Shown one piece after another: positions 25,525 through 58,283 of a DNA stretch of 64,000 bases (its first letter is position 1; each line of letters starts with the position of its first letter). Position numbers and translations under genes: made by a program. The notes beneath the pieces are model-generated. The model saw only the letters and a list, made by a program, of their open reading frames with translations, did no database searches and was not told where the DNA came from. Source of the stretch: a bacterium (GTDB lineage: Bacteria; Patescibacteriota; Saccharimonadia; Saccharimonadales; SZUA-47). The DNA is taken from NCBI GenBank assembly GCA_030428125.1, contig JAUIBF010000001.1, positions 162,793 to 226,792 of the forward strand, written 5' to 3'.

Positions 25525-25601
25525 GCGGGTGTAGCTCAGTTGTTTAGAGCGCATCCTTGCCAAGGATGAGGTCGAGAGTTAGAGTCTCTTCACCCGCACC
25601 A
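25525..25601 (+). tRNA. tRNA-Gly (anticodon GCC), CCA encoded. It is the integration target of the downstream island.
   Basis: GCGGGTG-TA-GCTC AGTTGTTTA GAGC-G-CATCC TTGCCAA GGATG-AGGTC-GAGAG TTAGAGT CTCTT-CACCCGC-A-CCA. Confidence 0.9.
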
Positions 25602-27638: not shown

Positions 27639-28046
27639 CTATAGTCGCTTGGGTATAGTTAATACTATGTTTACTTCACCATCTTCAATTTCATACTCAC
27701 CCCAACAACTTACTGTTTTACCTGAATTAACTAAAGCCGCAATCTGTGTGGCAGTCGGCTTTCCCTCGTAGGCTACATAGCCCAGCCAATTCTTGCTAGT
27801 TGTTTCCGTGCTTGGATAGTTGTTTACGTTATAAAACTCGCCATTAGGCCAACCCTTACTGATTTGGAAGTTATTTTTGGGACTAAGCGAAAAACGAATT
27901 GGAGTATTTAATTCCAAGGAAGCTGATTGATTTTTTCTCCATACCTCCCCCTGAACATGAACCCTTATCGGACCTTTTGGAACTTCTACGGTTTCTTCGG
28001 CGGGTGCATCATCCTTACCGATTAATTTTTTTAGTTTAGATAACAT
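27639..28046 (-). CDS. Hypothetical protein, 136 aa from an internal ATG with RBS GAAGGGGAAAT. The ORF track extends to 28157.
   Basis: The ORF and RBS match the pattern used elsewhere in the window. No motif. Confidence 0.45.
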   Translation of the reverse strand: MLSKLKKLIGKDDAPAEETVEVPKGPIRVHVQGEVWRKNQSASLELNTPIRFSLSPKNNFQISKGWPNGEFYNVNNYPSTETTSKNWLGYVAYEGKPTATQIAALVNSGKTVSCWGEYEIEDGEVNIVLTIPKRL

Positions 28047-28376
28047 ACATTTCCCCTTCATTGGTTGATGAAGCGGGTCAATAAAAAAAAGGACAACCCG
28101 CAGGTTGTCTAAAACCAGTACCAGCTTACGCCGAATACTTTTACGCGAGTTGCCCATTTTTTGGCATAAACACGCAAAATGCGATATTTGATACTGGTTT
28201 TAGACTATTTCATTATACCAATCATCTTAGTTTTCAGTAGTTTTTGCTATTTGGTCAATAGACCCCCAAAAATTCGCCATTGCTATTTTTGCTCAGAAAA
28301 ACGCTTGTCAAAATCGGCCCCGAAAATTCGGCATTTATACAGCGGAGTCCCGGCAACAGGGGTGGAGGGCAACTTC

Positions 28377-28410
28377 CCCCCTAGTATTGGAAAATCCAAT
28401 ACTAGGGGAA
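28377..28410. promoter_or_regulatory. Perfect 13-bp inverted repeat ccctagtattgga-aaa-tccaatactaggg in the divergent intergenic region. Candidate operator.
   Basis: Palindrome read directly from the sequence. Nearby direct repeats aaaattcgccatt / aaaattcggcattt lie at 28269-28281 and 28323-28336. Confidence 0.4.
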
Positions 28411-28462
28411 ATTAAAACTCCTTATGCTATGGGTTTAGTGCTGCTAGGCGTAAAATTGAAGT

Positions 28463-28648
28463 ATGTCAGACATTGAAAAAGAAGTATTGCATAAATTTAA
28501 AACCGAACTTTCGGGGATTGATAAGATTTCCCAGCAATTGTCTGATGCGCTTTGCGTAGAACTTGAAAAAGACTCACCCAGCGTAGAGACGTTGATGAGC
28601 ATAATTCAGCTGAAAAAGGGGTTTATTTCCGATGATAAAGCTGGGTGA
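28463..28648 (+). CDS. Small 61-aa protein, translationally coupled (17-nt overlap) to the downstream ATPase gene.
   Basis: The ORF end overlaps the ATG of the 817-aa gene. Confidence 0.4.
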   Translation: MSDIEKEVLHKFKTELSGIDKISQQLSDALCVELEKDSPSVETLMSIIQLKKGFISDDKAG

Positions 28649-31085
28649 ATTACACATTGAAGAATTTAGAGGTATCCGCCAATTAGATATTGATTTTAAG
28701 TATCAATCTTTTGCTGTTCATGGACCAAATGGTTCTGGTAAAAGCGGAGTGGTTGATGCAATTGGCTTTGCACTTAGTGGAACTATAGCGAGGCTAACTG
28801 GTGCTGGTACACGGTCAGTTTCGGTGAAGGCTCACGCTCCACACGTAATGAGCAAGGACGATCCTAGCTCGTCCCGGGTTTCACTTACGTTTAAAGATTT
28901 AGTTAGTGGACAGATTGGAACTATCACTCGGACGGTTCAAGACCCACAAGACTTTACACTTTCACCAGACACACCTGAGCTTAGAGCTGCGCTTGAAAGT
29001 GCACTTAAGCACCCAGAAATTACTCTATCTAGGAGAGAGATCATAAAGTTCATACTTGCAGAAGCAGGTAAAAGATCAGAGGAAGTGCAAGTGCTCCTGC
29101 AGCTAGATAAAATTGATGCAAATCGTAAGGTTCTGAAATCAACACAAAATAAAGTTGACTCAGACAAACGTAATGCCGCTCAACAAGCCACACAGGCGAA
29201 ACAAGCAATGGAATTACATCTTGGTATCAGCGATTTGGATGCAGAAAAAGTTAAGGACAAAATAAACCCGCATAGGAAAACCCTCGGTTTAACTGAATTT
29301 AAGAAAGTTGATCTTTCTACTAACTTGCGTGAAGGTTTGGATGAAAAAGACGAAGAGAAACCATTTGACAAAGAGACTGCCAAAAGAGAGGTCAAGGCAT
29401 ACGAAGACGCTATAAGCTCTTCGCCGACAATTCTTACGGAGACAGTAGTTGAATTAATCAAAGCCCTGAAAGAGCTGGACGATGACGCAAACCTAGAACA
29501 GCTTAAGAACAGGAGTTTTTTGGAGTCTGGACTTGAACTGGTTGCAGAAGAGGGGGTATGTCCACTTTGCGATAAAACTTGGCAAACGCCAGACGAACTC
29601 AGAGAGCACCTGAAGCATAAAATAGAAAGCTCAAAGGAAATAGCGAAAATCAGTGAGAATATCGTTCTAAAGGCAAATGACGTAAAGGATGCTATAGGAG
29701 ATGAGCGTGCACTATTGTCTCAGGTTCAGAAACTCTCTGTGAACTGGTCTGATGTTGACGATCAAAACTTATTTCAGTCAAGAATGGACTTGCTACTTGA
29801 GTTTGGTACATTGCTAAAAGATGCTAAAGGATGTGTTGACACACAAGACCGGCTGGAAGCCGGTGACTTAGATGCCAAGAGTGAGCTGCTTGAAGCAATA
29901 GGTAGACTTAAAGATAAGATTGATAAGCAGGCTGACACTTCCGAAAAATCAAAATCTCGTAGTCATCTCATACTGGCAGCTGAGAGATGGACCGCATTTG
30001 CTAATGCTAAAGTAAGCGAACAGCGTGCACTGAACTCATCAGAAAGAGCTGAGTTGGTTTACAAATCATACTGCAAGGTAGCTGATGCAGAACTAGAGGA
30101 GCTTTATGAAAGTGTTGAAGCAAGATTTAGTAAATTCTACGGTCAAATTAATAGTGATGACGAAGAGGGTTTCAAGGCCGAATTCAAACCTACGGCAGGA
30201 AAATTAGACCTTTTTGTTGATTTTTACGGCATAGGAATGTTTCCGCCCGGTGCATACCACAGTGAAGGTCATCAGGATGGTATGGGCATTTGCCTATACT
30301 TAGCCCTAGTAGAAAAAATACTGGGCAAAAATTTTAGCTTGTCTGTACTAGACGATGTAGTAATGTCTGTGGATGTAAATCACCGGAGACAGTTTTGCGA
30401 GCTACTACAAAAAGAATTTCCAGATACCCAATTTATTATTACTACCCACGATGAAATATGGGCAAAGCAAATGAAAACCACTGGGCTAATAGCTAGTAAA
30501 TCTGATATTCGCTTTAGGGGCTGGAGCGTAGATCATGGGCCTATATATGAACAAGGGGAAGAATTCTGGGACAGAATAGATGAAGACCTAAAGAAGGGTG
30601 ATGTTCCAAGCGCCTCTCATAAACTTCGTAGAGGTCTTGAGGCAGAGTTACCCGACATTGCTGAGGCAATGGCCGCAAAGGTAAAGTATCGTGGAGATGC
30701 AAAATACGAGCTTGGCGAGCTTACGGACGCCATAAAGTCTAGGCACGCTGGCTTATTAAAGTTGGCTAAAGAGTCAGCTAGTTCGTGGAACAAAAAGGAT
30801 GACCTTGAAAAAATAAAACAAATTGATAAGACACGAATTGAAGCAGCGCTTTCTCAGCAACGCGAGAACTGGGCAGTAAATTTACAGGTTCATTTCAACG
30901 ATTGGGCAGACATGTCTGTTAATGATTTTAAGCCTGTTGTGGAAGCGTGGCACACATTCTTAGACCTTTATAGATGCGGCAACGATGCTTGCGAGTCGTG
31001 GATAGGGGTAACTTACAACTCCGGTGCGCAAGAGAGTTTGCGTTGTCGCTGCGGCGAATACAATCTTAATTTATTGAAAAAGTAG
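28632..31085 (+). CDS. Rad50/SMC-like ABC ATPase with a coiled-coil CxxC zinc hook and a ~230-aa C-terminal domain. Candidate RloC-like anticodon nuclease / defence ATPase.
   Basis: Walker A GPNGSGKSGVVDAIGF. Long charged coiled coil with CPLCDKTW in the middle. Walker B/D-loop LSVLDDVVMSVD and H-loop FIITTHD. C-terminal RRGLEAE...(+35)...SRHAG, i.e. R-x3-E then His, as in the PrrC triad. Terminal Cys cluster CGNDACESW...CRCGEY. Confidence 0.7.
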   Translation: MIKLGELHIEEFRGIRQLDIDFKYQSFAVHGPNGSGKSGVVDAIGFALSGTIARLTGAGTRSVSVKAHAPHVMSKDDPSSSRVSLTFKDLVSGQIGTITRTVQDPQDFTLSPDTPELRAALESALKHPEITLSRREIIKFILAEAGKRSEEVQVLLQLDKIDANRKVLKSTQNKVDSDKRNAAQQATQAKQAMELHLGISDLDAEKVKDKINPHRKTLGLTEFKKVDLSTNLREGLDEKDEEKPFDKETAKREVKAYEDAISSSPTILTETVVELIKALKELDDDANLEQLKNRSFLESGLELVAEEGVCPLCDKTWQTPDELREHLKHKIESSKEIAKISENIVLKANDVKDAIGDERALLSQVQKLSVNWSDVDDQNLFQSRMDLLLEFGTLLKDAKGCVDTQDRLEAGDLDAKSELLEAIGRLKDKIDKQADTSEKSKSRSHLILAAERWTAFANAKVSEQRALNSSERAELVYKSYCKVADAELEELYESVEARFSKFYGQINSDDEEGFKAEFKPTAGKLDLFVDFYGIGMFPPGAYHSEGHQDGMGICLYLALVEKILGKNFSLSVLDDVVMSVDVNHRRQFCELLQKEFPDTQFIITTHDEIWAKQMKTTGLIASKSDIRFRGWSVDHGPIYEQGEEFWDRIDEDLKKGDVPSASHKLRRGLEAELPDIAEAMAAKVKYRGDAKYELGELTDAIKSRHAGLLKLAKESASSWNKKDDLEKIKQIDKTRIEAALSQQRENWAVNLQVHFNDWADMSVNDFKPVVEAWHTFLDLYRCGNDACESWIGVTYNSGAQESLRCRCGEYNLNLLKK

Positions 31086-31097
31086 AATAATACTTTT

Positions 31098-31715
31098 TCA
31101 ATAAGGTATCTGTTTGTTCAAAAGGATAATTTCTTTTAGCTTTTCTTCATCCGTTAAGTTGCGTATATGGTCACTTACAAAAGACGCAAGTTTTAACAGT
31201 AGCTCATCGCGAAGCATTTGGTGGTGGAAGTATATTATTTGCAGATCTTCTCCCTCAATACTAAGAGGTGGAGCAATCGCAACCGCCCTGTGCTTGTGGT
31301 GTTCGTCCCATTCCTCTACCACCTGGTTTGACCATTTGTTAACATCAAAACTAACGTTGGTTTCCAGACCTTTGTACTTATAGTATGAATAGAAACTATT
31401 TGATTGCCCTACATGCGCAAAGGGATGTCTGCCTGATTTCCAAAAAAGTTTGCACAATTCCTTATCCCAGCCCCAAGCATCATGTAATACATTCGCAATA
31501 GTTTGAACATTTGGAAAAGTCTTGCCGCTATAAAAAGTTACAAGCCATTCAATATATGAAAATGTGCTAGACCATAATGAAGATGCTTTAAGTGAGTAGA
31601 AACTATCTATGCCGTTGCTGTGAATGTCATCTGAGATTGTTTTTAGGTAGTTAATCCAGTTTGATGCTTTGTTATCAATGGCGTTCGCTTGGCTGTTATT
31701 TACACTTGGTATCAT
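31098..31715 (-). CDS. Hypothetical Trp/Tyr-rich protein, convergent with the ATPase gene.
   Basis: ORF only. Confidence 0.45.
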   Translation of the reverse strand: MIPSVNNSQANAIDNKASNWINYLKTISDDIHSNGIDSFYSLKASSLWSSTFSYIEWLVTFYSGKTFPNVQTIANVLHDAWGWDKELCKLFWKSGRHPFAHVGQSNSFYSYYKYKGLETNVSFDVNKWSNQVVEEWDEHHKHRAVAIAPPLSIEGEDLQIIYFHHQMLRDELLLKLASFVSDHIRNLTDEEKLKEIILLNKQIPY

Positions 31716-31900
31716 GCGAGAATTATAACAAAGCTGTCCTTGGTATGATTAACAAGAGTCACGAACATTATCTAAAATTTTCAGTAGATAATTTTCTCCT
31801 TACCTATTTGTGATGATTGAATACTGGGAGCACTTGAAAGACTGCCGTCCACTATTGCGCCGAAAAGTTTGAGAACGTTCTGTAGCTCCGCACCAAGAAA

Positions 31901-31928
31901 AGAGAGCCCAGAACGGGCTCTTTTTTCT
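31901..31928. terminator. Hairpin agagccc-agaac-gggctct flanked by an A-tract and a T-tract. Bidirectional terminator.
   Basis: Seen in the sequence, followed by ttttttctt. Confidence 0.5.
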
Positions 31929-32023
31929 TGATTTGGTGGTGACTCTCAGATTCTCAACCTCATAAAAATAATTTATCCGTCGAGAGTTGTAGCCCTTTCT
32001 TGCCCGGCACGGTCAAGAAAGCC

Positions 32024-32042
32024 AGAGTCTCTTCACCCGCAC
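32024..32042 (+). repeat. attR core, direct repeat copy 2 (partial tRNA-Gly 3' end).
   Basis: Identical to 25581-25599. Confidence 0.85.
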
Positions 32043-32134
32043 TATTCCATCAACCTAGCAGTACGCAAGGTATTTATGAATAGTAATTTTGAAGAGGTTG
32101 TGCTTTGTTTCAATGCTGAGTATATTACTAATAA

Positions 32135-34069
32135 ATGCTAAAGAAACTATACGAGGACAAGCAGCGAGTACTTTTTAGCTTAGCAGTAGGTATAGTGGGG
32201 GCAATTGCTTTGAGCGGAGTGTTCGCTTTTAACAACAGCGACAGTAAAGTATTCGAAGCTGAATCAAGTACAGTAAGTGGTTGCGTCAAATACAATAGTG
32301 ATTCAAACGCATCTGATGGGCAATATGTAGAATTTTCTGGTTCTGGATGTGATGATTCGGTTCTAGGTGAACTCAAAAAGTGGCATAAAGTAACGCTACT
32401 GTTTGAGGGGCCAAACACTAACGAAACTGCCACCCCTAATCCATTTACAGATTATCGTTTAGACGTTACGTTCACAAACGGTGACTCAACCTATGTCGTG
32501 CCTGGCTATTACGCGGCCGATGGCAATGCGGCTAACACTTCCGAAGATGCAGGCAATATCTGGCTGGCTCACTTTACACCGGATGAAACTGGCACCTGGA
32601 ACTACAGCGTGTCGTTCAAACAAGGTTCAGATGTGGCCATAGGTACTGGTGGAAATTCGGCTGGTTTTATGGATGGTATAACAGGAAATTTTGACGTAGC
32701 AGATAGCGACAAATCAGGCCGTGACCACCGAGCTACCGGAAGACTGGAGTATGTGGGTCAACACTATCTACGTTACGCAGAATCAGGTGATTATTTTATC
32801 AAAGCCGGCCCAGATGCTCCCGAAAACACACTGGCATATGAAGATTTTGATGCCACACCGGATGCTGGTGGTAGGCGAAAATCCTGGAGCCCCCACCAAC
32901 AAGATTATGTTGATTCAGATGCTAGTCCCTACACTTGGCAATCAGGCAAGGGTAGCGAGTTACTCGGAGCAATCAACTACCTGCACAACCAGGATATGAA
33001 TGCATTTTCATTCCTGACGCTGTCGATTAGTGGTGATGACGATAACGTCTACCCGTACGTTGCTAAAACTAGTGGTGCAACAGACTGGAATAATGTTCAT
33101 CATGACAGGTTTGATGTGTCTAAAATGGCACAGTGGGACAAAATTTTTGAATATGCCGACAAAAAAGGCATGTATTTGCATTTTAAGACTCTTGAAACCG
33201 AAAATGATAACTTAATGGACAATAACTCTTTTGGTCGTGAGCGAAAGCTGTACTACCGTGAGCTAATTGCCAGATTCGGTTACCATTTAGCGCTAAACTG
33301 GAACATTAGCGAAGAAGTAACTTTGCCAGAAGCCGTAGTCAAATCCACGGCAGCCTACATAAAAGATATTGATCCCTACTACCATAACATTGTCGTTCAC
33401 ACCTACCCAGGCGATACTAACAAATATGGTGGGCTGACAGGCAATCAGTCAGAGCTAACTGGCGCGTCTATGCAGATAAACATCACAGGGGTACACAGCG
33501 GCATCCGAACTTGGGTTGCTAATTCAGCAAATGCTGGCAAGAAATGGATAGTAGCCAATGATGAACAGGGCGGAGCTAATACTGGAGTAGACAAAGACCC
33601 TAACGATCGTGAACTAGTTCGTCGCGAAGTAATATGGGGTACTTTAATGGCTGGTGGAGCTGGTTTTGAATACTACTACGGTTACGGTACCGGTTGTACT
33701 GACCTGACGTGCCAGGATCATCGCACTCGTGCCAGCAAATGGGTAGATGCCAAAATTGCGAAGAATTTCTTTAATCAGTACCTGTCATTCTGGGAAATGG
33801 TGTCAAACGACGGTCGCACCAGTACCAGCAACGATTACGTCTATGAAAAACCTGGTGAAGTTTACGCAATTTATCTAGAAAATGGTGGCACAACCAGTAT
33901 TAATCTTAGTGGACAGTCAGGTTCTTTTAGCGTGAAGTGGTATGATCCTAGAAATGGTGGTGACCTATCCGATGGATCGGTAACCTCTATAAACGGTGGT
34001 GCTAACCGTTCCATTGGTAATCCGCCCAATTCCTCGTCTTCTGACTGGGTAGTTTTAGTAAAAAAGTAG
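32135..34069 (+). CDS. Secreted protein with a CBM6/35-like N-terminal domain followed by a probable glycoside-hydrolase-like (TIM-barrel) domain.
   Basis: Signal anchor VGIVGAIALSGVFA. FEAESSTVSG...SNASDGQYVEFSGSG motif. The central region has alternating hydrophobic and acidic features typical of CAZymes. The family assignment is uncertain. Confidence 0.5.
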   Translation: MLKKLYEDKQRVLFSLAVGIVGAIALSGVFAFNNSDSKVFEAESSTVSGCVKYNSDSNASDGQYVEFSGSGCDDSVLGELKKWHKVTLLFEGPNTNETATPNPFTDYRLDVTFTNGDSTYVVPGYYAADGNAANTSEDAGNIWLAHFTPDETGTWNYSVSFKQGSDVAIGTGGNSAGFMDGITGNFDVADSDKSGRDHRATGRLEYVGQHYLRYAESGDYFIKAGPDAPENTLAYEDFDATPDAGGRRKSWSPHQQDYVDSDASPYTWQSGKGSELLGAINYLHNQDMNAFSFLTLSISGDDDNVYPYVAKTSGATDWNNVHHDRFDVSKMAQWDKIFEYADKKGMYLHFKTLETENDNLMDNNSFGRERKLYYRELIARFGYHLALNWNISEEVTLPEAVVKSTAAYIKDIDPYYHNIVVHTYPGDTNKYGGLTGNQSELTGASMQINITGVHSGIRTWVANSANAGKKWIVANDEQGGANTGVDKDPNDRELVRREVIWGTLMAGGAGFEYYYGYGTGCTDLTCQDHRTRASKWVDAKIAKNFFNQYLSFWEMVSNDGRTSTSNDYVYEKPGEVYAIYLENGGTTSINLSGQSGSFSVKWYDPRNGGDLSDGSVTSINGGANRSIGNPPNSSSSDWVVLVKK

Positions 34070-34100
34070 AAAAACCTAAGTCCCAAGTAAAAATTATCTG

Positions 34101-35321
34101 TTGTTTTACAGCATAATGCCCGATAGTTTTATTGATATAATAACTACTGAAATGACAGAAAAAGCAAAAAAGATATTGCGACCCTTGTATTACTTTGCAT
34201 TTATTGAGGCGTTGATTTTCTGGTACGCAATAGAGAAGCTTTTATGGGACAATTCTGGACTGACAGCAGATCAGATAGTAATCCTCGGGATTATCGCACA
34301 GAGTAGTCAGGTGCTTATCGAAGTACCTTCCAGTATTATTGCTGACAGGTGGAGCCGCAGAAAAACATTAATTGCCTCGTCGTCTTTTATGCTGTTCGCA
34401 ATAGTTATAGTTTTGGTCGAGCAGTCGTTTATGTCCTTTTTAATAATGTCCTTGATGTGGGCTTTCTACTATGCGTTTCAATCAGGCACGGTGAACGCCT
34501 ACGTATACGACTTACTAAAAGAAGGTGGAGAAGAATCTCAATACAGAAAAGCTGTGTCTAGGTATGCCACGTTTCAACTAACGGGCTTATTGGTGTCTTC
34601 GCTTGGTGCAAGTTTGTTAATCAAGTTCGGTGGCTTTCTGATGCCTTATTGGGTAACACTTTTGCCAACTGCCGTGGCTATACTGATTTTAATTAAAATG
34701 AAAGACCCCCCAATCGAAAGGACCGAAGATTCACTAGGTAGCGCACTTAATCACGTCAGGAGCTCTATTAGGAATGTAGCAGCCAAAAGATGGTTGCGGT
34801 TAATTTTTCTGGGATTAGCTTTCGTAACAGCCGCAAGGTTTATCTGGTATGAGTACTACCAGCTATTTGCGTTAGAGCGTGAAGTTGCGGCTGTTTTATT
34901 TGGCATAATGTTGGCTCTTATTCATGCTGGTAATATTCTTGGTTCAGAATTCGCCCATAAAGTAAAAAGCCCAAATAAAGTCTTAGCCACAGCTTTTTCA
35001 GCCATGTTAGTCAGTAGTTTAGTGCTAATTTTTGTTTCGAATCAATTTGCGATAATCGGGTTCTTAATATTGAGCTTCTTTGGCTCACAGGCTAGTTCTA
35101 TAGTTTTGGATGAAAGCCTCCAACACCAAACGAAATCTGAGCTAAGGGCTACAACGCTGTCCCTAGTTGGATTGTTAAGCAGAGTCTTTTTCGGGGCAGG
35201 AGCACTGTCGATTATTATATTTGATAGCACTGCCAGTGCAATTGCTGCAACTTCAGCAGCGCTCTTTTTAGGAACTCTGGTTTACTTGCCGGTTAGAAGA
35301 AGGCTAATTTCTGTGGACTAG
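34101..35321 (+). CDS. MFS transporter.
   Basis: About 10-12 TM helices. MFS motif A-like IADRWSRRKTL. Confidence 0.7.
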   Translation: MFYSIMPDSFIDIITTEMTEKAKKILRPLYYFAFIEALIFWYAIEKLLWDNSGLTADQIVILGIIAQSSQVLIEVPSSIIADRWSRRKTLIASSSFMLFAIVIVLVEQSFMSFLIMSLMWAFYYAFQSGTVNAYVYDLLKEGGEESQYRKAVSRYATFQLTGLLVSSLGASLLIKFGGFLMPYWVTLLPTAVAILILIKMKDPPIERTEDSLGSALNHVRSSIRNVAAKRWLRLIFLGLAFVTAARFIWYEYYQLFALEREVAAVLFGIMLALIHAGNILGSEFAHKVKSPNKVLATAFSAMLVSSLVLIFVSNQFAIIGFLILSFFGSQASSIVLDESLQHQTKSELRATTLSLVGLLSRVFFGAGALSIIIFDSTASAIAATSAALFLGTLVYLPVRRRLISVD

Positions 35322-35421
35322 TCCTTAAGTGCTGCGGTCAGCTTTGTTTTCAAGAACACTAGACCTAGATGGTTCGCCAAGAGCCGTAAAACTTTAACTG
35401 TGTTTTTGCTAGTATTGAACT

Positions 35422-36003
35422 ATGGATATGAAGATCTTTGCAGGCCTGCTGACCCTGATTCTGGCAATAATTTCCTATGGTATTTACATGTATGCAGTTG
35501 CCAGACAAGGGACCAAGCCTCATATGTATTCCTGGTTGCTATGGAGTATTCTTGCAGCGATAGGATTTTTCGGACAGGTTAGTGATGGTGCAGGTCCAGG
35601 TGCATGGAATACTGGCATAACTGCGATAGGTTGCTTCACCATTTTCATAATTGCAACTAAAAGAGGGGATAGATATTTAAGCAATGTAGATCGGATTCTG
35701 TTATTTTTAGCTTTCATTGCTGTGGGGGTACAAGTATTCTGGAGTAATCACACGTTGGCTGTAACTCTGGCAACATTGACAGCATTAGTTGGGTTTGTTT
35801 TTACACAAAAGAAGGTATTCAAAAGCCCACATGAGGATTCTTGGCCAACATTCTTTATTAATGCAAATCGCAATCTAATATCCTTGTTTGCTTTATCAAC
35901 CATTTCTTATCTAACGTTCTTCTATCCGTTTATGATGTTTCTTGCTAATTTGTCAGTTGCTTTTACGATTATATTGATGCGACGCTACAAGTCTGCAAAG
36001 TAG
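35422..36003 (+). CDS. Integral membrane protein (about 6 TM).
   Basis: Hydropathy only. Confidence 0.5.
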   Translation: MDMKIFAGLLTLILAIISYGIYMYAVARQGTKPHMYSWLLWSILAAIGFFGQVSDGAGPGAWNTGITAIGCFTIFIIATKRGDRYLSNVDRILLFLAFIAVGVQVFWSNHTLAVTLATLTALVGFVFTQKKVFKSPHEDSWPTFFINANRNLISLFALSTISYLTFFYPFMMFLANLSVAFTIILMRRYKSAK

Positions 36004-36145
36004 GTCAATTTGTATTGCCGCCAGGTTTCTTCAAAAAGGCCATTCAATCTATACCACATTAGCTATATTGTAAAATTTACCAAAATGTTTGGAAATACAT
36101 AGCTGTACTGCCATAGTAAGAAGCAACAAACTATCAGGAGGTGAC

Positions 36146-39100
36146 GTGCTTAGATTGCTCAATGTATTTACAAATGGTGGGGTTAAAAAAATAGCGTTCG
36201 TTGCTATTTTATTGGTAACTTTATCCGTCCCGGCGTTAATATTCGGGCAGGGTTCGTTTTTGAACACACCACATCTATCGTTTGATGGCTCTAACGATAA
36301 AGTAGACCTGCAGAATCTAGATATAAGTGGTAGTGCATTGACATTGGAAGTTAATTTTAACTCCAGTGACTTAGATAACTGTGGTAGCTATTTAGATTGT
36401 AGAATAATCTCTAAGTCCGTCGGTACAGCGGACCAAGATCATTATTGGATGCTTTCAACAATAAAAAATAGTAGCAACCAAGCCGTACTTAGATTTCGTC
36501 TAAAAACTGGCAGTAGCACATCAACTCTTATTGCAAGTTCGGCCGTAGTTAACGAGAACGAATGGAATCATGTAGCTGCTACCTATGATGGTTCTATGAT
36601 GAGATTATATTTGAACGGTAACGAGGTTGGATCTGCGCCGAAATCCGGTAACTTAGCTACGAACTCTAGCGTAAATGCCTACATCGGTAACAACCCGGTT
36701 ACTTCTAAGCCGTTCGAAGGGTTAATTGATGATGTCAGAATCTGGAACATCGCTAGGACACAATCCGAAATTAGTGATAGCAGAGAAGCAGAACTTACTG
36801 GTTCTGAATCTGGTTTGGTGGGTTACTGGCGATTTAACGAAGGCGAAGGACAGTTTGCTCACGACTCATCTGGTAATTTAAACGATGGAATCCTTGGGGA
36901 TGCCGTATCTGTTGATAGTGCTGACCCAGTTTGGTTAAATCTTGCAGCTGACGTAGAACCACCTACACAAGTCACCAACGTAACAGCGGATGTCATATCC
37001 TCTAACCAGGTTAACCTAGACTGGGATGTTAGCAGTGACGATAGAGCAGTTACTCAATATGTTGTAGAGCGTAATCAAGTAGAAATCGCAGCTGTTTCGA
37101 GCAATGATTTTGTAGATACTGGCCTTAGCGAATTAACAACTTACGAATATGTTATTTATGCTGAAGACGAAGCTGGAAATCGCTCAGTTGGTTCAGAAGC
37201 GATCAGTGTTCAAACTCCTGTAGCCCCTGACACAGAGGCGCCCACAGTTCCACAGAATCTACAAGCTGTCGAGGTAAACGAAAGTCAAGTTGACCTAGCT
37301 TGGGAAGAGAGCACCGATAACGTAAGTGTAACCCACTACAACGTTCTAAGAGATGGTGCATTACTAGAAACAATTGTTGCTGCAAACACTTATACTGACT
37401 TAACCGTTACACCAGGTGTAACCTACACGTATGCTGTAAATGCAGTAGATGCAGCAGGTAATACATCGGCCGATAGTAATACAGTTCAGACTTTGATCCC
37501 AACTCCTCCCGATAACGATCCACCAACGACGCCACAAAATCTTCAAATCGTATCATCCACCGACGAAGAGGTTAACCTGGACTGGGACGATAGCACCGAC
37601 AACGTTGTGGTTCTTAGGTATTTGGTCGTACGCGACGGTGTTCAGATAGCAGAAGCGCCTAATTCAAGCTTCACGGACACCGAATTTACTATTGGTGTCG
37701 AACACACTTACGAAGTCTACGCCGAGGACGCATCCAGCAACATTTCTGCTGTGTCAAATCAAGTTTCAGTAACCGTCTTAGACACTACAAATCCTGAACT
37801 TGAGATAGTTAACCCTACGTCAGGACAGTACCTAACAGGAACAATCGCTTTGCACGCAGACGCAACTGATAACGTAGCTGTAGACTACGTCAGGATTTCT
37901 ATAGACGATGTAGAAGTTCATACGGCTTTTGATGCTCCATTTACTTTTGATTGGGACTCGACAACTGTGCCTGATGGCGAACATACAATCAGCTTTGAAG
38001 CATTTGATACCAGTGGAAATAGCAATCTAGCCAGTAGTACACACACAGTTATAAATGACTTTAGTGCAGTGCCACTACCTGGTGGTCAACACGTTGTATT
38101 TGATGGAAATAATGATCGAATTAACTTAGGTGCGCTTGAAGTTGGTTCAAACAGCCTGACTCTAGAAGCTTGGTTTAGAAGCGACGATTTAGGAAATTGT
38201 AGTTCAAATGATTGCCGAATTCTAACAAAGGCTAGTGGAGTAAATACCAACGATCACACCTGGATGCTTAGCACGATAAAGAGTGGCTCCTCAACAAATA
38301 TGAGGTTCAGATTAAAAACAAATGGTTCTACAGAAACGTTGATTTCTAACCAAAATGTCCCTGAGTCAGAATGGGTTCATGTGGCGGCTACTTATGACGG
38401 CAGCCAAATGCGAATTTACCAGAATGGCCAACTAGTCGGCCAACAAAATGAAACTGGTTCAATTACTTCAGAACCAAGCAAGCAGGCTTGGATTGGTTCC
38501 TCGCCAAACAGTGGGCTAAGACCTTGGCTAGGCGAGGTAGACGACGTGCGAATTTGGAATGTAGCGCGGAGCCAGCAGGAAATCGCAGATAACATGAACT
38601 ACGAACTGACAGGCGTAGAAGACGGATTGTTTGCTTACTATAAACTTAACGAAGGTGGTGGCCAGCTAGCCTACGATGCTACAGGCAACCAATCAAACGG
38701 AATTATTGGTTCTACCGATCAAGTTGATGACAACGACCCAGCTTGGGGATTAGAAGCTCCAGATACCGAAGCACCTTCGTCACCAGGCAACCTGCAGTCC
38801 GGATCAGTAACCGACAACTCGTTCACATTAGATTGGCAAGCCAGTACAGATAACGTTGCGGTAACTGCTTACGAAGTTGTCATAGACGGCGTTGTTCGGG
38901 AAGTTATCGGTACCCAAACAAGCTACCTAGTTGATAGCTTGCAACCATCCACGGAATATATAGCTCTCGTACGAGCTTACGATGCTGCTGGTAACCTGTC
39001 TAGCGACTCCAATCAAGTGATAGTTACGACAACAACTCCAGACACAACTGCACCTGTAGTCTCGATTGATTCGCCACTAGACAGTGCAGAATTAACGGGG

Positions 39101-42100
39101 ATTGTTGATGTCACACTCACTGCAAGCGACGATCAATCACTAGATTACGTGGAAGTAATTTTAGATGGCTCGGTGTTAGAAACACTAACTAGCGGACCAT
39201 TTATATATTCTTGGAATACAGCAACGGTTAGCAATGGGCTTCATGATCTTTCAGCTCGAGCAGTAGATAGCTCTGGCAATGAAACATCGACCAGCACAAT
39301 AGTTGTGGATGTTCAAAATACGACGCCTCCGGTGAACGCGCTTCCTGGTTCACAGCATCTCGTGTTTGACGGCTCTAACGACCGAGTTGATCTAGGCAAT
39401 ATAGATATTCCAGGCAATCAGATGACTCTAGAGGCTTGGGTGAATAGTTCAGATTTATCTAACTGCGCAGCCAGGGATTGCCGAATCATCGCAAAGGCAA
39501 CTGGCGTAAACGATCAGGATCATTATTGGATGGTTAGTACGATCCAGGATGGTGGTAATACAGCCTTAAGATTTAGATTAAAAACCAATGGCAACACCTC
39601 TACACTAGTAAGTTCAAGCAATGTCCCCGAAAATTCTTGGGTTCACATAGCTGCGACTTACGATGGCTCAGCTATGCGTCTATATCAAGACGGAAACTTA
39701 GTGGGAACAACCTCAAAATCTGGTTCAATTACTACTGCTTCAACCGTACCAGCCTGGTTAGGTGATTCACCTGTTGGAAACCGACCATGGCAAGGTGCGA
39801 TTGATGATGTTCGTATATGGACGGTCGCAAGATCACAAGCTGAAATCAGTCAGGCTATGAACCAGGAACTTACCGGTTTAGAAGACAATCTGTTTGCTTA
39901 CTATAAACTCAACGAAGGTGGTGGCCAAACAGCAGTAGATAGTGGTTCAAATGGACTCGATGGTGTACTCGGTTCTTCGACTAACAGTGATAGTGCCGAC
40001 CCAACTTACGGAATAGAAACACCAGACGTTCAATCTCCAACCACACCACAAAACGTCGTGGTAGCAAACGCGTATTCAACCCAAATTGACCTAACCTGGG
40101 ACGAAAGCTTCGATGATCGTATCGTAGCGGGCTATATTGTTCTGAGGGACGGAGTAGAAGTTGGCAATGTAGACACGAACTCATTCACCGATATTTCGGT
40201 CAGCCCGCAGACCTCGTACAGTTACCAAATAGTAGCTTACGACGGTGCCGATAATCAGTCGGATGCTTCCAGTGCCACCAACGCTGCAACTAGTGAAGTA
40301 ATGCCAATTACTTTCAGTGGCGTTCAGGTAGATAGTGTTTCTACTGACAAAGCTACAATTTCTTGGCAAACTAACGATACGGCGTCAGGAAAGATCGAGT
40401 ACGGCATTACTACAAGCTACGGATCAGAAACTTCCGAATCTGCTAACTTGCAGGCTTCGCACACCCAGGAACTGACTGACCTAGCAGCGGACACTGTCTA
40501 TCACTTCAGGATTGTTTCTACTAACTCATCGGGCACATACACCTCAGAAGATTACACGTTTACGACTTCTGGTAATATCGTAATCGGCGGAGAATTCGGA
40601 TTCGAATACGAAACAATTAGCGACGTTAGTGGTACTGGTGGCCGAACAGCTATATCGGACATCGATGGCGATGGTTACAACGATGTCGTAGTGCACACCT
40701 GGGCAACTAACCGTGGAAACGACGATAATGGAACCCTTATTTGGTATAAATACCCAGACTGGACTCCTACAACTGTTCTGGACAATACAAATTTCTTCGG
40801 TGATGGAATAATTGCAGCCGATCTAGATGCCGATGGTGATATGGACATAATTACCTGTAAGGGTAGCGATTCCGACCCTAGTATTTACTGGTACGAAAAC
40901 CCCGGCGATGGCAGCGGTAATTGGAACGAATCTTTTGTGTTAAAAATGGAAACGGGCTCAGAAGTAAAAGATATCGAAGTCCACGACATGGATCATGACG
41001 GCAAACTGGACATAGTTGGTCGGTCTAAGCATAGAACAACAATCATGTACCAAGACAATCCTCAGTCTTGGGATGTGCGGGAAACTATTACCCAAGAACG
41101 CGAAGGTATGATGCTTGGTGATGTTGACCACGACGGGGACGAAGACATAATCATCAACGGTTGGTGGTTAGAAAACCCAGGTGTTAGAGCAACGGATCAG
41201 CTAGAAATCCACGACTTTGATTCTACCTGGAACGGGCAATCTGGTGGTAGTTTCAGGGACAACGCCGTAATGATTTCTACCGGTGACTACGATGGCGATG
41301 GCGACGAAGATTTTGCTGTTAGCCATGCCGAACATCCAGGATATACAGCAGCTTGGTACGAAGCTGTAGACCCTAAAGCTGGCGAATCAGGGTTCATCAA
41401 GCACCCAATCGCTACCGTAGATTATGGCCACAACAATGCATCAGCCGACTTTGACTTAGATGGTGACGTTGATATCTTGATCGGTACAACCACTTGGGCC
41501 GGAAGTAGCAATAAAATCTCGGTGTTCCTAAACGACGGCACTGGTGAAAACTGGACAGAACATGTAATGTGGAACACTGCAGGATATAAAGGAGTTATCG
41601 GCGACATCGATAATGACGGCGACATGGACTTTACAAGTTCCAGAAACTGGGAAACCCATCCTGTGTATGTACTTCGAAACACATCGGACCCTGTTTTTAG
41701 GCCAACCGACCCAGCTCTAGACATGTGGGAGCGACACGAAGTTGACCAAATGGCATGGCGCGGAGTTTTCGTAGAGCACGCTGACCTAGACGGAGACGGC
41801 GACGAAGATGTTGCATCTGCTGGCTGGTGGTACGAAAACCCAGGTGAATTATCAGGTCAGTGGATCGAACACACCATCGGTTCACCACTAAATAACTTAG
41901 GCGCAATTTACGACTTTGATGGCGATGGCGACATGGATATCCTAGGAACAGAGGGCCAAGGTTCGACATCTAACCGTAACCTTGTTTGGGCCGAAAACGA
42001 TGGCAGCGGTAACTTTACAGTCAGGACAAACATTAACACTGGCGGAAGTGGAGACTTCTTGCAAGGTGTGGCTGTCGATAGATTTACCGATGCCGGTCCT

Positions 42101-43918
42101 CTGCAAGTTGCCATGTCCTGGCACAACGGTGGCGGTGGAGTTCAAATGCTTACCGTACCGTCTAATCCAAGTACTGAGCAATGGACCTGGCAGCAAATTT
42201 CATCGACTACTCAGGGCGAGCAGTTAACAGCTGGCGACATCGATCAAGATGGCGACCGCGACTTGTTGCTGGGAACAATCTGGCTGGAAAACAATTCCGG
42301 TGTCTGGACACCACACGTAATGTACGAACCAAGTGGCATAGATAACACACCAGACAGAAGTCGCCTAGCAGACATGAACGGCGACGGCAGGCTAGATGCC
42401 GTTGTGGGCTTCGAAGCCATAAGTATCCCTGGCCGCTTGGCATGGTACGAACAACCCGCCGACCCAACCGGAACATGGACAGAGCACATAATTGACGAAA
42501 CAATCATCGGCCCAATGAGTCTGGATGTATTAGATATGGACTACGACGGCGATATCGAAGTGGTCGCTGGCGAACATAACCTAGCCAACACTTCTGCCGC
42601 AAGGCTGTTCGTTTACGAAAATATCAACGGTGACTCTACTGAGTGGACTCAGCATGTTGTATATACTGGTGACGAACACCACGACGGCGCACAAATAGCC
42701 GACCTAGATAATGATGGCGATTACGACATTGTATCGATTGGTTGGGGTGCAAGGCGTGTTACGGTTTACGAAAACACTACCCCCGTAGCAGGAGCTTGGT
42801 GGAGTGACGCCCACAGCTTCCGTTTGCCACTAACATTTTCACCAGATGACCAACAGCGACAAGATTACGTTGTCGAGACGAACCTTAACTTTACCGACCA
42901 ATTTAATCAGGCGAACTCTCCTGGCGCATTAATAGAAGATTCTATAAGGGTTGTAGAAACAGACGAAAACGGCTTTGTAATTAACAGCTCAGTGGCGCAT
43001 CAGTTCATCCCAAGCAGCGATTATGATGCTTCAACTAACGCAGCTGGAACATTAGCGCTTCTGCTGCCTGGTGTAACCAGTGCCGATGAATCCAGATACT
43101 TTGATGTTTACTTCGATCACAGTGGAGCTTTCCCAGCTATAAACTTCACAGATTTGGTTTCAGTAACCGACGATGTTCAGGACGAAGGTCAAGCAAGTTT
43201 CGAGGTAGTTACACCAAATGCAACTTGGTTGTACCAAAAAGATGCCGGTGGATTCTCTAGCATCATTGATTCTGACGGTAACGACTGGATAGGCTACAGC
43301 ACGGCAACTGGGTCTGCCGGAGAATTCAGGGGTATCCCTAACCTGGTTTACCCAGAAGGTCAGTTCCATCCAGGTGCAACCGGTTCAACTTCAACCCTGG
43401 TTACAGATGGCCCGCTTAAGACAACCATCCATACCACCACAAATGACGATGCTTGGGAAGCTTACTGGCACATTTACCCAACACATGCACAGCTCCAGGT
43501 TGTAAAAACAAATCACAGCTATTGGTTCTTGTACGAAGGTACACCTGGCGGCCAGCTAGATTACACTAACGATTCCGTAACACTATCAAATGGCCAAGTT
43601 TACGGAGCCGATCAAACCTTCCACTTTGATTTCGATGGCGAAGAATGGGCGTACGTTAGCGATGCAGCCGTCAACCGATCTATATTCCTAGTACATCACG
43701 AAGACGATAACGAGATTGATGGATACCGGCCAATGAACAATCAAATGACTGTTTTTGGATTTGGACGCGGCGCCGGAACTGCAACCTACATGGATAATAC
43801 TCCCCAACACTTTAGTGTAGGGCTAATGGACTTAGTCGATTACCAAAACGGAAGCGAAGTTGTTCGGGGTTCCTTCTATCAATATTCAATTACGAATAGT
43901 CCAGTAGAATCAAGGTAG
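36146..43918 (+). CDS. Giant (about 2590-2609 aa) secreted multidomain surface protein. It has 3 LamG/ConA-like modules, FN3 and Ig-like domains, about 13 FG-GAP/VCBS repeats (two beta-propellers) and a C-terminal domain. GTG start with an AGGAGG RBS; the alternative ATG is at 36089.
   Basis: Three paralogous modules each contain LTLEAW..DCRI..HYWM.STI..RFRLKT..W.H.AATYDG..R.Y.NG...DDVRIW..AR.Q.EI. FN3-like ..VNLDWD.S.D...V..Y.V.R.. segments. Repeats of D.D.DGD.D at 40660-42730. Confidence 0.85.
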   Translation: MLRLLNVFTNGGVKKIAFVAILLVTLSVPALIFGQGSFLNTPHLSFDGSNDKVDLQNLDISGSALTLEVNFNSSDLDNCGSYLDCRIISKSVGTADQDHYWMLSTIKNSSNQAVLRFRLKTGSSTSTLIASSAVVNENEWNHVAATYDGSMMRLYLNGNEVGSAPKSGNLATNSSVNAYIGNNPVTSKPFEGLIDDVRIWNIARTQSEISDSREAELTGSESGLVGYWRFNEGEGQFAHDSSGNLNDGILGDAVSVDSADPVWLNLAADVEPPTQVTNVTADVISSNQVNLDWDVSSDDRAVTQYVVERNQVEIAAVSSNDFVDTGLSELTTYEYVIYAEDEAGNRSVGSEAISVQTPVAPDTEAPTVPQNLQAVEVNESQVDLAWEESTDNVSVTHYNVLRDGALLETIVAANTYTDLTVTPGVTYTYAVNAVDAAGNTSADSNTVQTLIPTPPDNDPPTTPQNLQIVSSTDEEVNLDWDDSTDNVVVLRYLVVRDGVQIAEAPNSSFTDTEFTIGVEHTYEVYAEDASSNISAVSNQVSVTVLDTTNPELEIVNPTSGQYLTGTIALHADATDNVAVDYVRISIDDVEVHTAFDAPFTFDWDSTTVPDGEHTISFEAFDTSGNSNLASSTHTVINDFSAVPLPGGQHVVFDGNNDRINLGALEVGSNSLTLEAWFRSDDLGNCSSNDCRILTKASGVNTNDHTWMLSTIKSGSSTNMRFRLKTNGSTETLISNQNVPESEWVHVAATYDGSQMRIYQNGQLVGQQNETGSITSEPSKQAWIGSSPNSGLRPWLGEVDDVRIWNVARSQQEIADNMNYELTGVEDGLFAYYKLNEGGGQLAYDATGNQSNGIIGSTDQVDDNDPAWGLEAPDTEAPSSPGNLQSGSVTDNSFTLDWQASTDNVAVTAYEVVIDGVVREVIGTQTSYLVDSLQPSTEYIALVRAYDAAGNLSSDSNQVIVTTTTPDTTAPVVSIDSPLDSAELTGIVDVTLTASDDQSLDYVEVILDGSVLETLTSGPFIYSWNTATVSNGLHDLSARAVDSSGNETSTSTIVVDVQNTTPPVNALPGSQHLVFDGSNDRVDLGNIDIPGNQMTLEAWVNSSDLSNCAARDCRIIAKATGVNDQDHYWMVSTIQDGGNTALRFRLKTNGNTSTLVSSSNVPENSWVHIAATYDGSAMRLYQDGNLVGTTSKSGSITTASTVPAWLGDSPVGNRPWQGAIDDVRIWTVARSQAEISQAMNQELTGLEDNLFAYYKLNEGGGQTAVDSGSNGLDGVLGSSTNSDSADPTYGIETPDVQSPTTPQNVVVANAYSTQIDLTWDESFDDRIVAGYIVLRDGVEVGNVDTNSFTDISVSPQTSYSYQIVAYDGADNQSDASSATNAATSEVMPITFSGVQVDSVSTDKATISWQTNDTASGKIEYGITTSYGSETSESANLQASHTQELTDLAADTVYHFRIVSTNSSGTYTSEDYTFTTSGNIVIGGEFGFEYETISDVSGTGGRTAISDIDGDGYNDVVVHTWATNRGNDDNGTLIWYKYPDWTPTTVLDNTNFFGDGIIAADLDADGDMDIITCKGSDSDPSIYWYENPGDGSGNWNESFVLKMETGSEVKDIEVHDMDHDGKLDIVGRSKHRTTIMYQDNPQSWDVRETITQEREGMMLGDVDHDGDEDIIINGWWLENPGVRATDQLEIHDFDSTWNGQSGGSFRDNAVMISTGDYDGDGDEDFAVSHAEHPGYTAAWYEAVDPKAGESGFIKHPIATVDYGHNNASADFDLDGDVDILIGTTTWAGSSNKISVFLNDGTGENWTEHVMWNTAGYKGVIGDIDNDGDMDFTSSRNWETHPVYVLRNTSDPVFRPTDPALDMWERHEVDQMAWRGVFVEHADLDGDGDEDVASAGWWYENPGELSGQWIEHTIGSPLNNLGAIYDFDGDGDMDILGTEGQGSTSNRNLVWAENDGSGNFTVRTNINTGGSGDFLQGVAVDRFTDAGPLQVAMSWHNGGGGVQMLTVPSNPSTEQWTWQQISSTTQGEQLTAGDIDQDGDRDLLLGTIWLENNSGVWTPHVMYEPSGIDNTPDRSRLADMNGDGRLDAVVGFEAISIPGRLAWYEQPADPTGTWTEHIIDETIIGPMSLDVLDMDYDGDIEVVAGEHNLANTSAARLFVYENINGDSTEWTQHVVYTGDEHHDGAQIADLDNDGDYDIVSIGWGARRVTVYENTTPVAGAWWSDAHSFRLPLTFSPDDQQRQDYVVETNLNFTDQFNQANSPGALIEDSIRVVETDENGFVINSSVAHQFIPSSDYDASTNAAGTLALLLPGVTSADESRYFDVYFDHSGAFPAINFTDLVSVTDDVQDEGQASFEVVTPNATWLYQKDAGGFSSIIDSDGNDWIGYSTATGSAGEFRGIPNLVYPEGQFHPGATGSTSTLVTDGPLKTTIHTTTNDDAWEAYWHIYPTHAQLQVVKTNHSYWFLYEGTPGGQLDYTNDSVTLSNGQVYGADQTFHFDFDGEEWAYVSDAAVNRSIFLVHHEDDNEIDGYRPMNNQMTVFGFGRGAGTATYMDNTPQHFSVGLMDLVDYQNGSEVVRGSFYQYSITNSPVESR

Positions 43919-49651: not shown

Positions 49652-49739
49652 GGGCGAGTGGCGGAATTGGTATACGCGACGGACTTAAAATCCGTTGGTT
49701 GAATAAACCTTGAGGGTTCAAGTCCCTCCTCGCCCACCA
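49652..49739 (+). tRNA. tRNA-Leu (anticodon TAA), type II with a long variable arm, CCA encoded.
   Basis: GGGCGAG-TG-GCGGAATTGGTATACGCG-ACGGA CTTAAAA TCCGT-TGGTTGAATAAACCTT-GAGGG TTCAAGT CCCTC-CTCGCCC-A-CCA. The GTGGCGGAATTGGTA D-arm is Leu-like. Confidence 0.9.
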
Positions 49740-49857
49740 CGTCAATAACGCACAAAGAACTTGCATGATTTTCTAAGAATAAATATCAGAAAATACCGCA
49801 AGTTCTTTTTGATATTTCCTCTTCCCCACAAAACAGGTTTTGCGGGGACCCCTTTGT

Positions 49858-49930
49858 GGGCGAGGAGGGACTTACTGATAAGAGGGCACATTGGACTTAG
49901 ACCTTGAGGGTTCAAGCCTCTCCTCGCCCA
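49858..49930 (+). pseudogene. Partial tRNA-Leu duplicate, 73 nt. The 3' half is near-identical to tRNA-Leu, the 5' half is non-canonical, and there is no CCA.
   Basis: GGGCGAG...ACCTTGAGGGTTCAAGCCTCTCCTCGCCCA versus tRNA-Leu ...ACCTTGAGGGTTCAAGTCCCTCCTCGCCCA. No foldable D or anticodon arm. Confidence 0.4.
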
Positions 49931-50053
49931 CTAGCCTCGTGATTCATCAAAGGTGGGTTGTTTTTACTATGCTTTGATAGACCTGAACCCCTGGGATGGA
50001 GTTGACGGAGGCTCGAACTAGATATGTATCTGTTGTTTAGCTATACTGTACTA

Positions 50054-58269: not shown

Positions 58270-58283
58270 AAGGAGGCTTGCCG

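Follow-up and report, generated by a model that had tools for sequence, protein, structure and literature searches.

In the predator Vampirococcus lugosii, which belongs to the candidate phyla radiation (CPR), giant membrane or surface proteins of 1,392–4,163 amino acids (aa) with integrin, fibronectin and PKD domains have been proposed to act in host recognition and attachment (PMC8080830). In the cultivated Saccharibacterium Southlakia epibionticum, transposon sequencing (Tn-seq) identified VCBS- and FN3-containing envelope proteins as essential (SEML1_0891 and SEML1_0890), and the authors speculate that host glycans are the targets of these proteins, either for adhesion or for degradation (PMC10633639). 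A gene for a giant modular protein was analyzed here in a 64,000-nt stretch of contig JAUIBF010000001.1 (assembly GCA_030428125.1, a small-genome Saccharibacterium), referred to as the window. The gene (36089..43918, plus strand) encodes three LamG/ConA-like lectin modules separated by FN3 and Big_7 domains, two FG-GAP beta-propellers and a C-terminal domain named X. The reading that we tentatively prefer is that of a modular glycan-targeting exoprotein in which X would bind a specific sugar polymer, likely a glycan of the host envelope, and probably cleave or modify it. The gene is a concrete candidate for a molecule of host-envelope recognition or exploitation, and apart from type IV pili such molecules are largely unknown. 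Literature searches on Saccharibacteria together with FG-GAP or laminin G, and on sequencing run ERR3428546, returned nothing specific, and a giant-gene preprint on Omnitrophota makes no mention of LamG or FG-GAP domains.

Integrity of the Giant Gene

The plus strand at 36089..43918 contains a single uninterrupted open reading frame (ORF) of 2,609 codons, counted from the first in-frame TTG at 36089, with no stop codon or frameshift across its 7.8 kb. The true start is likely the GTG at 36146–36148 rather than this TTG because an AGGAGG ribosome-binding site, read from the sequence at 36136–36141, precedes the GTG with a spacing of 4 nt. Translation from the GTG gives a product of 2,590 aa (280 kDa, pI 4.05) with a high content of D, S, T, and G. 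The gene occupies 7,830 of the 64,000 nt (12.2%) of the window, so that the first-pass annotation, a note made from the sequence without database searches, gave both the size (about 2.6k aa) and the share (12 percent) correctly. Paralogues of the gene were not found elsewhere in the window. A scan for promoters and terminators around the gene gave nothing usable, with fewer promoter-like sites than in shuffled sequence.

The presence of repeated modules within the gene, the metagenomic origin of the contig and the unequal composition of the N- and C-terminal halves at third codon positions (see below) all suit an explanation in which the long ORF arose artefactually, as a chimera or through repeat expansion or collapse among paralogous modules. 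The first-pass annotation had raised the same worry about frameshifts and repeats on the basis of modules that are about 70 percent identical at the nucleotide level. The measured DNA identity between pairs of LamG modules is indeed 68–74% (51–60% at the protein level), and a Big_7-LamG-FN3 unit is present twice with 49% amino acid and 71% nucleotide identity. Repeat collapse or expansion is nevertheless unlikely because the gene contains no exact internal nucleotide repeat of ≥20 nt. Furthermore, two contigs carry this 2,590-aa product without a single change: one of 0.2–1 Mb and an 18.8-kb Logan assembly of run ERR3428546, where the neighboring genes are also the same. An assembly artefact is unlikely because the repeats are only 68–74% identical and the identical protein is present in this second assembly. 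With an open frame over the whole length, domains that are all complete and fold with high confidence in models, and full-length homologous architectures known from other genomes, we regard the artefactual explanation as highly improbable, and the worry about frameshifts and repeats was not substantiated.

Export and Organization of the N-Terminal Stalk

A Sec signal peptide or uncleaved signal anchor is predicted from hydropathy at aa 1–35 (36146..36250), with a hydrophobic core at aa 15–34 that represents the sole 19-residue segment with a Kyte–Doolittle hydropathy above 1.6 in the whole protein. Because this lone hydrophobic segment is N-terminal, the protein is predicted to be exported. 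A lipobox cysteine is absent from the N-terminal signal region. A search of the whole protein for an LPXTG-like motif (regex [LIV]P.[TSA][GNA]) gave no match and the C-terminus is hydrophilic (...SPVESR); the C-terminal motif, hydrophobic segment and charged tail of sortase-anchored surface proteins are thus lacking. Anchoring by a sortase was rejected on account of the absent motif.

Pfam assigns three stretches of the protein to Laminin_G_3 (E = 7e-86, 286.4 bits against a cut-off of 27.6), the best of which covers the complete profile (1–151/151), and the modules therefore belong to the Laminin_G_3/ConA-like lectin-glucanase superfamily (PF13385). Whole-protein matches were also obtained for FG-GAP_3 (2.3e-41, 140.6 bits), FG-GAP (56.6 bits), fn3 (5.4e-29, 100.7 bits) and, in two stretches, Big_7 (1e-25, 90.6 bits). 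The FN3 (PF00041) and Big_7 (PF17957) assignments pass the curated cut-offs, and five out of six FN3 and both Big_7 domains are supported when segments are searched individually.

LamG module 1 (aa 40–265, 36263..36940), which also matches Laminin_G_2 and Laminin_G_1, is followed by three FN3 domains (aa 268–362, 363–455, and 456–545; 36947..37780). The first two of these have fn3 matches of 2.7e-6 and 1.8e-7; the third has no Pfam match and was called solely from its similarity to the adjoining FN3. A bacterial Ig domain, Big_7 a (aa 546–644, 37781..38077; 1.2e-16), leads to LamG module 2 (aa 645–870, 38078..38755), FN3 domain d (aa 871–965, 38756..39040; 3.1e-12), Big_7 b (aa 966–1065, 39041..39340; 1e-15) and LamG module 3 (aa 1066–1290, 39341..40015), which is the best Laminin_G_3 stretch. 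Two FN3 domains close the stalk (aa 1291–1384 and 1385–1476, 40016..40573; segment-wise Pfam), the second of which also matches Pur_ac_phosph_N. Every LamG module carries a short Cys-x4/5-Cys pair (Cys79–Cys85, Cys685–Cys690, and Cys1107–Cys1112), and the nearest solved sequence relative of module 3 is the N-terminal region of pappalysin-1 (1.5e-12). The Pfam placements agree with the module coordinates of the first-pass annotation, and the FN3-like and Ig-like separators that it described correspond to FN3 and Big_7. Glycan binding by the LamG modules is a prediction, and their sequence points to no particular ligand.

Catalytic families of carbohydrate-active enzymes (CAZymes), i.e., glycoside hydrolases (GH), polysaccharide lyases (PL) and carbohydrate esterases (CE), had no match in Pfam or NCBIfam, where only binding or spacer domains were found. 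Two apparent enzyme matches were rejected. The NCBIfam exoglucanase CbhB scored 264 bits against a cut-off of 1,950 and was located on the FN3 repeats, and a match of the RGI_lyase beta-sheet to one FN3 (1.7e-4) was below its cut-off, so that a link to rhamnogalacturonan lyases was treated as noise.

Two FG-GAP Propellers

The stalk is followed by two FG-GAP beta-propellers of seven blades each. Propeller 1 (aa 1477–1850, 40574..41695; FG-GAP_3 1.4e-23) contains seven DxDxDG calcium motifs, and propeller 2 (aa 1851–2210, 41696..42775; FG-GAP_3 2e-30) contains six canonical motifs and a degenerate blade. A total of 13 exact copies of the motif D.[DN].[DN]G..[DE] were identified between aa 1505 and 2194 (nt about 40658–42727), and the additional degenerate blade, judged by eye, is located near aa 1975. 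An AlphaFold2 model of aa 1477–2590 based on a 60-sequence alignment (mean predicted local distance difference test score, pLDDT, 92.5; predicted template modeling score, pTM, 0.61) displays 28 strands, a low-confidence linker (model residues 373–380), a further 28 strands and then X. This strand count is consistent with two seven-bladed, four-stranded propellers, as the first-pass annotation had supposed from about 13 repeats. In sequence the only PDB match of the propellers was CRTAC1 (5e-7). Fold matches of the propellers-plus-X model, all with low TM-scores, were to multi-propeller proteins, aldos-2-ulose dehydratase, integrin alpha chains, and CRTAC1. A relationship to Tc-toxins or Rhs-like toxins was rejected: weak TcdB_toxin_midN matches occur in the propellers of relatives only, and a toxin domain is absent.

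Domain X Is Conserved and Adopts a Mutarotase-Like Fold

The C-terminal domain, first estimated at 390 aa, spans 380 aa (aa 2211–2590, 42776..43915) and is the segment that reveals most about the protein. In the window protein, X has no Pfam match up to E = 10 and none in NCBIfam, and neither the single sequence nor a 50-sequence profile matches a PDB sequence. The X regions of 50 family members likewise gave no Pfam match up to E = 1, and a viral structure library returned weak, uninformative matches only. A model based on a 50-sequence alignment has a pLDDT of 93.3 and a pTM of 0.90 and consists of an N-terminal Ig-like beta-sandwich followed by a large beta-supersandwich, which indicates that X is a real, autonomous domain. 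The best PDB folds (Foldseek probability 1.0, E down to 1e-8) were the beta-domains of GH38 alpha-mannosidases, the mutarotase-like proteins YeaD/HI1317, and beta-galactosidase chains, with TM-scores of 0.35–0.5 (up to 0.5 when normalized by target length), a root-mean-square deviation (rmsd) of 7–10 Å and 8–13% identity. Judged by the model, X has the beta-supersandwich fold of the galactose-mutarotase-like superfamily and belongs to no described family. Its sequence does not match the Pfam families of aldose 1-epimerase and related proteins, the whole protein has no Glyco_hydro_38 match, and the likeness to GH38 enzymes is confined to their noncatalytic beta-domains.

The alignment of 50 X sequences, which are about 40–45% identical, contains 27 invariant columns, and the window sequence carries all 27. 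Among these are Q2286, R2317, D2375, D2380, W2381, R2395, N2399, H2408, E2464, D2525, and R2541. About ten invariant residues are polar, and many are located in a conserved loop at aa 2375–2410 (43268–43375). Most of the invariant residues were found again in an independent sample of 44 representatives. The family can be described as about 375 aa with the signatures D-x4-DW, RGIPN, FHPG, YEGTPGG, and FGFGR, to which the window X conforms. This pattern of conservation looks enzyme-like.

Distribution and Architectures of the X Family

Homologues of X fall into 1,693 clusters at 90% identity, with 40–48% identity over >90% of the length, and the named ones are all annotated as hypothetical. A profile search of 1.84 billion representatives returned 2,131 proteins at E ≤1e-3, of which 881 remain at E ≤1e-30 (the window X is representative P0277, 1.3e-160), and at 50% identity the family thus numbers about 2,100 clusters. 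At least 569 X loci were identified in a scan of GTDB species genomes. These belong to the bacterial Chloroflexota, Planctomycetota, Bacteroidota, Ignavibacteriota, Gamma- and Deltaproteobacteria, Actinomycetota, Nitrospirota, Verrucomicrobiota, and Dojkabacteria (CPR) and to the archaeal Methanoperedens and ANME-2. One cultured isolate, Thiocapsa roseopersicina DSM 217, is among them, and its member makes the function of X experimentally approachable.

X occurs alone (390–450 aa, many members), at the N-terminus with a LamG, carbohydrate-binding module (CBM) or PKD tail, and in the middle or at the C-terminus of mosaics of up to 5,578 aa. The domains that accompany X were surveyed in the same 44 representatives, a random sample. 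Of the 45 Pfam families that co-occur with X, the 25 most frequent all serve binding, spacing or sorting, with no known catalytic domain among those listed; they include Flg_new_2, DUF1349, fn3, Laminin_G_3, a type IX secretion system (T9SS) tail, Ig, Big_5, GH43_C2, FG-GAP, CBM_4_9, PKD, and cadherin-like domains. An N-terminal hydrophobic segment is present in 86 out of 111 X-family members. These partners and the signs of export form the pattern that would be expected if X were the operative part of secreted modular proteins.

An FG-GAP propeller immediately before X recurs in several phyla. The propeller–propeller–X core of the window protein is matched by proteins of about 1,100–1,430 aa at 96–99% coverage and 32–40% identity, and by itself the double propeller, about 720 aa in length, is conserved as a module at 42–50% identity in many proteins of 740–830 aa. 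The double propeller plus X is a conserved core that is also found in bacteria with large genomes (Chloroflexota, Planctomycetota, Gammaproteobacteria, and others), and the giant protein is therefore no device specific to episymbionts. The X family is widespread and folds confidently, has no Pfam model, solved structure or annotation, and is repeatedly fused to a double propeller and lectin-like modules.

Two other loci of the family are of note. In one (L005, 1845–10668), a gene for X alone (P0016, 445 aa) shares 50 nt with the start of a 2,511-aa gene, which encodes three FN3 and four LamG-FN3-FN3 units together with an FG-GAP propeller. A DDE transposase adjoins. The pair represents the window architecture in split or permuted form, or else a single gene with a frameshift. 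In the other (L087), a PL8 polysaccharide lyase (Lyase_8_N, Lyase_8, Lyase_8_C; 8794–10878) lies 3.6 kb downstream of a propeller–propeller–X protein (P0386).

A Putative Glycan-Targeting Exoprotein

The preferred reading can be put as follows. The product would be a modular protein of about 280 kDa, strongly acidic and calcium-binding, that is exported via Sec and aimed at extracellular polysaccharide. Its N-terminal 1,476 residues would form a stalk of eight FN3/Big_7 spacers bearing the three LamG/ConA-like lectin modules, which could provide multivalent, low-affinity glycan binding as well as reach. The C-terminal 1,114 residues, two seven-bladed propellers and then X, would constitute the functional head. 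X would be the operative domain, in which a predicted galactose-mutarotase-like, sugar-binding fold carries an enzyme-like set of invariant residues (Asp, Glu, His, Arg, Asn, and Trp), and would bind and probably cleave or otherwise modify a specific sugar polymer. For a Saccharibacterium the likely substrate would be a cell-envelope glycan of the host bacterium, and the protein might serve attachment and glycan harvesting jointly with an adjoining predicted glycosidase and a major facilitator superfamily (MFS) transporter. Such a role is in line with what has been speculated for the essential VCBS/FN3 envelope proteins of Southlakia (PMC10633639) and the giant integrin/fibronectin proteins of Vampirococcus (PMC8080830).

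The adjoining genes are three plus-strand genes directly upstream (32135..36003), whose order is the same on the second assembly and which may be functional partners of the giant protein. The first (32135–34069) encodes an exported, glycosidase-like protein of 644 aa with DUF5060 and Collagen_bind_2 domains and an N-terminal hydrophobic segment. Its middle region of about 400 aa, which has no Pfam or PDB sequence match, holds NWNISEE and ANDEQGG motifs that are reminiscent of a GH5-type barrel, and the protein may be an unclassified glycosidase. The second and third genes encode the MFS transporter (34101–35321, Pfam) and a polytopic membrane protein of 193 aa (35422–36003).

Several observations weigh against the preferred reading. 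Neither the sequence nor the model yields a sugar specificity, and no known catalytic family in Pfam or NCBIfam matches any part of the giant protein. The likeness of X to solved structures is at the superfamily level only (TM-score 0.4–0.5, rmsd 7–10 Å). GH38 beta-domains lie outside the N-terminal catalytic domain of those enzymes and are accessory, not catalytic. The pTM of 0.61 for the head leaves the relative arrangement of the two propellers and X uncertain, and the glycosidase-like protein upstream lacks a match to a defined GH family or to a PDB sequence. Finally, X-family genes elsewhere are often found near exopolysaccharide biosynthesis genes, which would also fit an action on the bacterium's own glycans.

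The first-pass annotation had proposed a host-attachment adhesin or adhesin organelle. The domain inventory, the identity of the organism as a Saccharibacterium, the predicted export and the published precedents agree with this proposal, but the anchoring by a sortase is ruled out, the core is not specific to episymbionts and the gene is accessory, and an adhesin is plausible but unproven. In its strictest form the adhesin would be purely noncatalytic, with the LamG lectins, the propellers and X all limited to binding and thereby holding the epibiont onto its host cell, by analogy with integrin alpha, the Vibrio matrix adhesins RbmC and Bap1, and lectins such as PVL. Every recognizable domain is a classic adhesion or binding module, the protein is large, acidic, predicted to be exported and equipped with calcium-binding motifs, and the accessory role of mutarotase-like domains in GH38 enzymes fits as well. 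In addition, giant integrin- or fibronectin-domain proteins have been proposed as attachment factors in CPR bacteria (PMC8080830) and "multiple adhesins" are required in Southlakia (PMC10633639). However, the same core in nearly the same architecture is present in large-genome Gammaproteobacteria, Chloroflexota, and Planctomycetota, and for a plain binding module it is unusual that some ten polar residues never vary at an overall identity of 40%. X is never appended to a known catalytic domain among its commonest partner families, a cell-anchoring motif was not found except for the possible uncleaved signal anchor, and related Saccharibacteria data contain no orthologue above 50% identity. A protein that does nothing but bind is considered less likely than the preferred reading.

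A further explanation is that the protein binds, organizes or trims the capsule or extracellular polysaccharide (EPS) of the bacterium itself, like the processing enzymes or scaffolds of EPS loci. Among about 83 X loci, family 2 glycosyltransferases (GT2) are found near the X gene in 13, sugar methyltransferases in 11, flippase-like genes in seven, and acetyltransferases in five. NDP-sugar genes are present near the X gene of one locus (L004), and a sulfotransferase and two GT4 genes near that of T. roseopersicina DSM 217. The commonest neighbors of X genes, in 49 out of about 83 loci, are other mosaic giants. In the window, a 188-aa ORF and a PGA_cap (CapA-like) gene lie downstream in convergent orientation, and a weak acyltransferase-3-like membrane protein is also encoded just downstream. 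On the other hand, a rough estimate, made without statistics, puts the enrichment of glycosyltransferases at a modest level compared with chance in 12-kb flanks, and many loci (e.g., L002) are without EPS genes. The PGA_cap gene, being convergent, is not co-transcribed with the giant gene, and PGA_cap stands for the synthesis of a poly-gamma-glutamate capsule, which is no sugar polymer. An action on the bacterium's own glycans is rated unlikely.

If X is catalytic it would found a new CAZyme family, and if it is a binding head it would represent a new glycan-recognition module.

Origin of the Gene and Its Genomic Setting

AtpD of the window is 82–87% identical to named Candidatus Saccharibacteria proteins and 90–96% identical to other relatives, which marks the organism as a Saccharibacterium. 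X and the propellers-plus-X core have no relative above 50% identity in the data searched. Because no such relative exists although those of AtpD reach 90–96%, the giant gene is a lineage-specific accessory gene and not part of a conserved attachment organelle of the Saccharibacteria.

The G+C content at third codon positions (GC3) is 0.31–0.38 in the N-terminal LamG/FN3/Big_7 half, and 0.373 ± 0.035 in 22 other genes of the window. It is higher toward the C-terminus (0.45 for the last two FN3, 0.45 for propeller 1, 0.49 for propeller 2, and 0.42 for X). This contrast hints that the C-terminal core was acquired horizontally and more recently, and that the lectin stalk was then elaborated through internal duplication. 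An extended scenario is that X is the catalytic domain of an undescribed CAZyme family (a glycoside hydrolase, lyase or epimerase on a mutarotase-like supersandwich) and the double propeller a platform that holds the substrate, with a horizontally acquired core to which lectins were added for digesting or remodeling the polysaccharide of the host envelope. In this specific form the scenario seems rather unlikely.

Signs of mobile DNA are present upstream of the cluster. The 3' end of a tRNA-Gly gene (25548–25602) is repeated at 31991–32045 (71% identity across 55 nt, of which the terminal stretch of about 20 nt is nearly exact). The bracketed region of about 6.4 kb (25525–32045) encodes a large serine recombinase (XisF/CcrB-like, 25544–27238), an 817-aa SMC/AAA_23 ATPase (28632–31085) and ORFs of 172 and 205 aa, and looks like an integrated element with att-like ends. 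The giant gene was rejected as a part of this element: the att-like repeat spans 25.5–32.0 kb only and ends before the cluster. The 3' end of a tRNA-Leu(taa) gene (49704–49737) is repeated 194 nt downstream at 49898–49931 with 91% identity (region 49652–49931), possibly a scar left by another integration or excision event.

AtpA, AtpD, PcrA, and MetG (56574–60810 and 9702–11891) score clearly below several NCBIfam equivalog cut-offs (AtpD 413.9 against 462.85), and the housekeeping genes of this genome are divergent. Equivalog scores below the cut-off are common in CPR bacteria. The window also contains a transfer-messenger RNA (tmRNA) gene on the minus strand (18602–18985) with the tag peptide AKTSLSEMADRVLAQRQFALAA.

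Comparison with Known Systems

The essential Southlakia proteins SEML1_0891 and SEML1_0890, compared by description, belong to the same phylum and are likewise exported envelope proteins with FG-GAP/VCBS and FN3 modules. The window protein is not their orthologue because no relative above 50% identity was found in any data set. The proteins of V. lugosii share with it a very large size and a surface location predicted in a reduced CPR genome, but they belong to another phylum and carry other domain sets in which X was not reported, and their function is also only proposed.

In architecture, the closest proteins are found in two uncultured Gammaproteobacteria (L072 and L074, 2,836 and 2,841 aa; P0312), which combine three LamG modules, propellers, FN3, and an X at the extreme C-terminus and are all annotated as hypothetical. 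Their three Laminin_G_3-type modules are 40–47% identical to those of the window protein, and the propellers-plus-X core is 32% identical over about 1,190 aa. They differ in the absence of Big_7, in longer gaps between the LamG modules, in an FN3 between propeller 2 and X, and in a propeller 1 that is only weakly similar (27–28%), and they are encoded in large genomes (contigs of 0.44 and 1.2 Mb).

At the level of repeats and folds only, the window protein resembles integrin alpha and CRTAC1, in which beta-sandwich domains come after a seven-bladed FG-GAP propeller whose calcium loops are of the DxDxDG type. Unlike these, it has tandem propellers, no C-terminal transmembrane segment and no UnbV_ASPIC. 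It does not qualify as an integrin alpha chain, since it contains two propellers, no hydrophobic segment beyond aa 15–34 and X in place of calf domains. A beta-subunit partner was not evident, though no search aimed at beta subunits was made.

The galactose-mutarotase-like fold binds sugars and is found in enzymes in their own right (epimerases) as well as in accessory domains of glycosidases. X differs from such domains in its additional N-terminal Ig-like sandwich and its own set of invariant residues, and the GH38 catalytic domain is absent. Overall, the whole protein is of a known kind, that of the giant modular exoproteins of CPR bacteria with predicted glycan binding, and what is newly described here is the conserved core of a double propeller plus X, and X itself.

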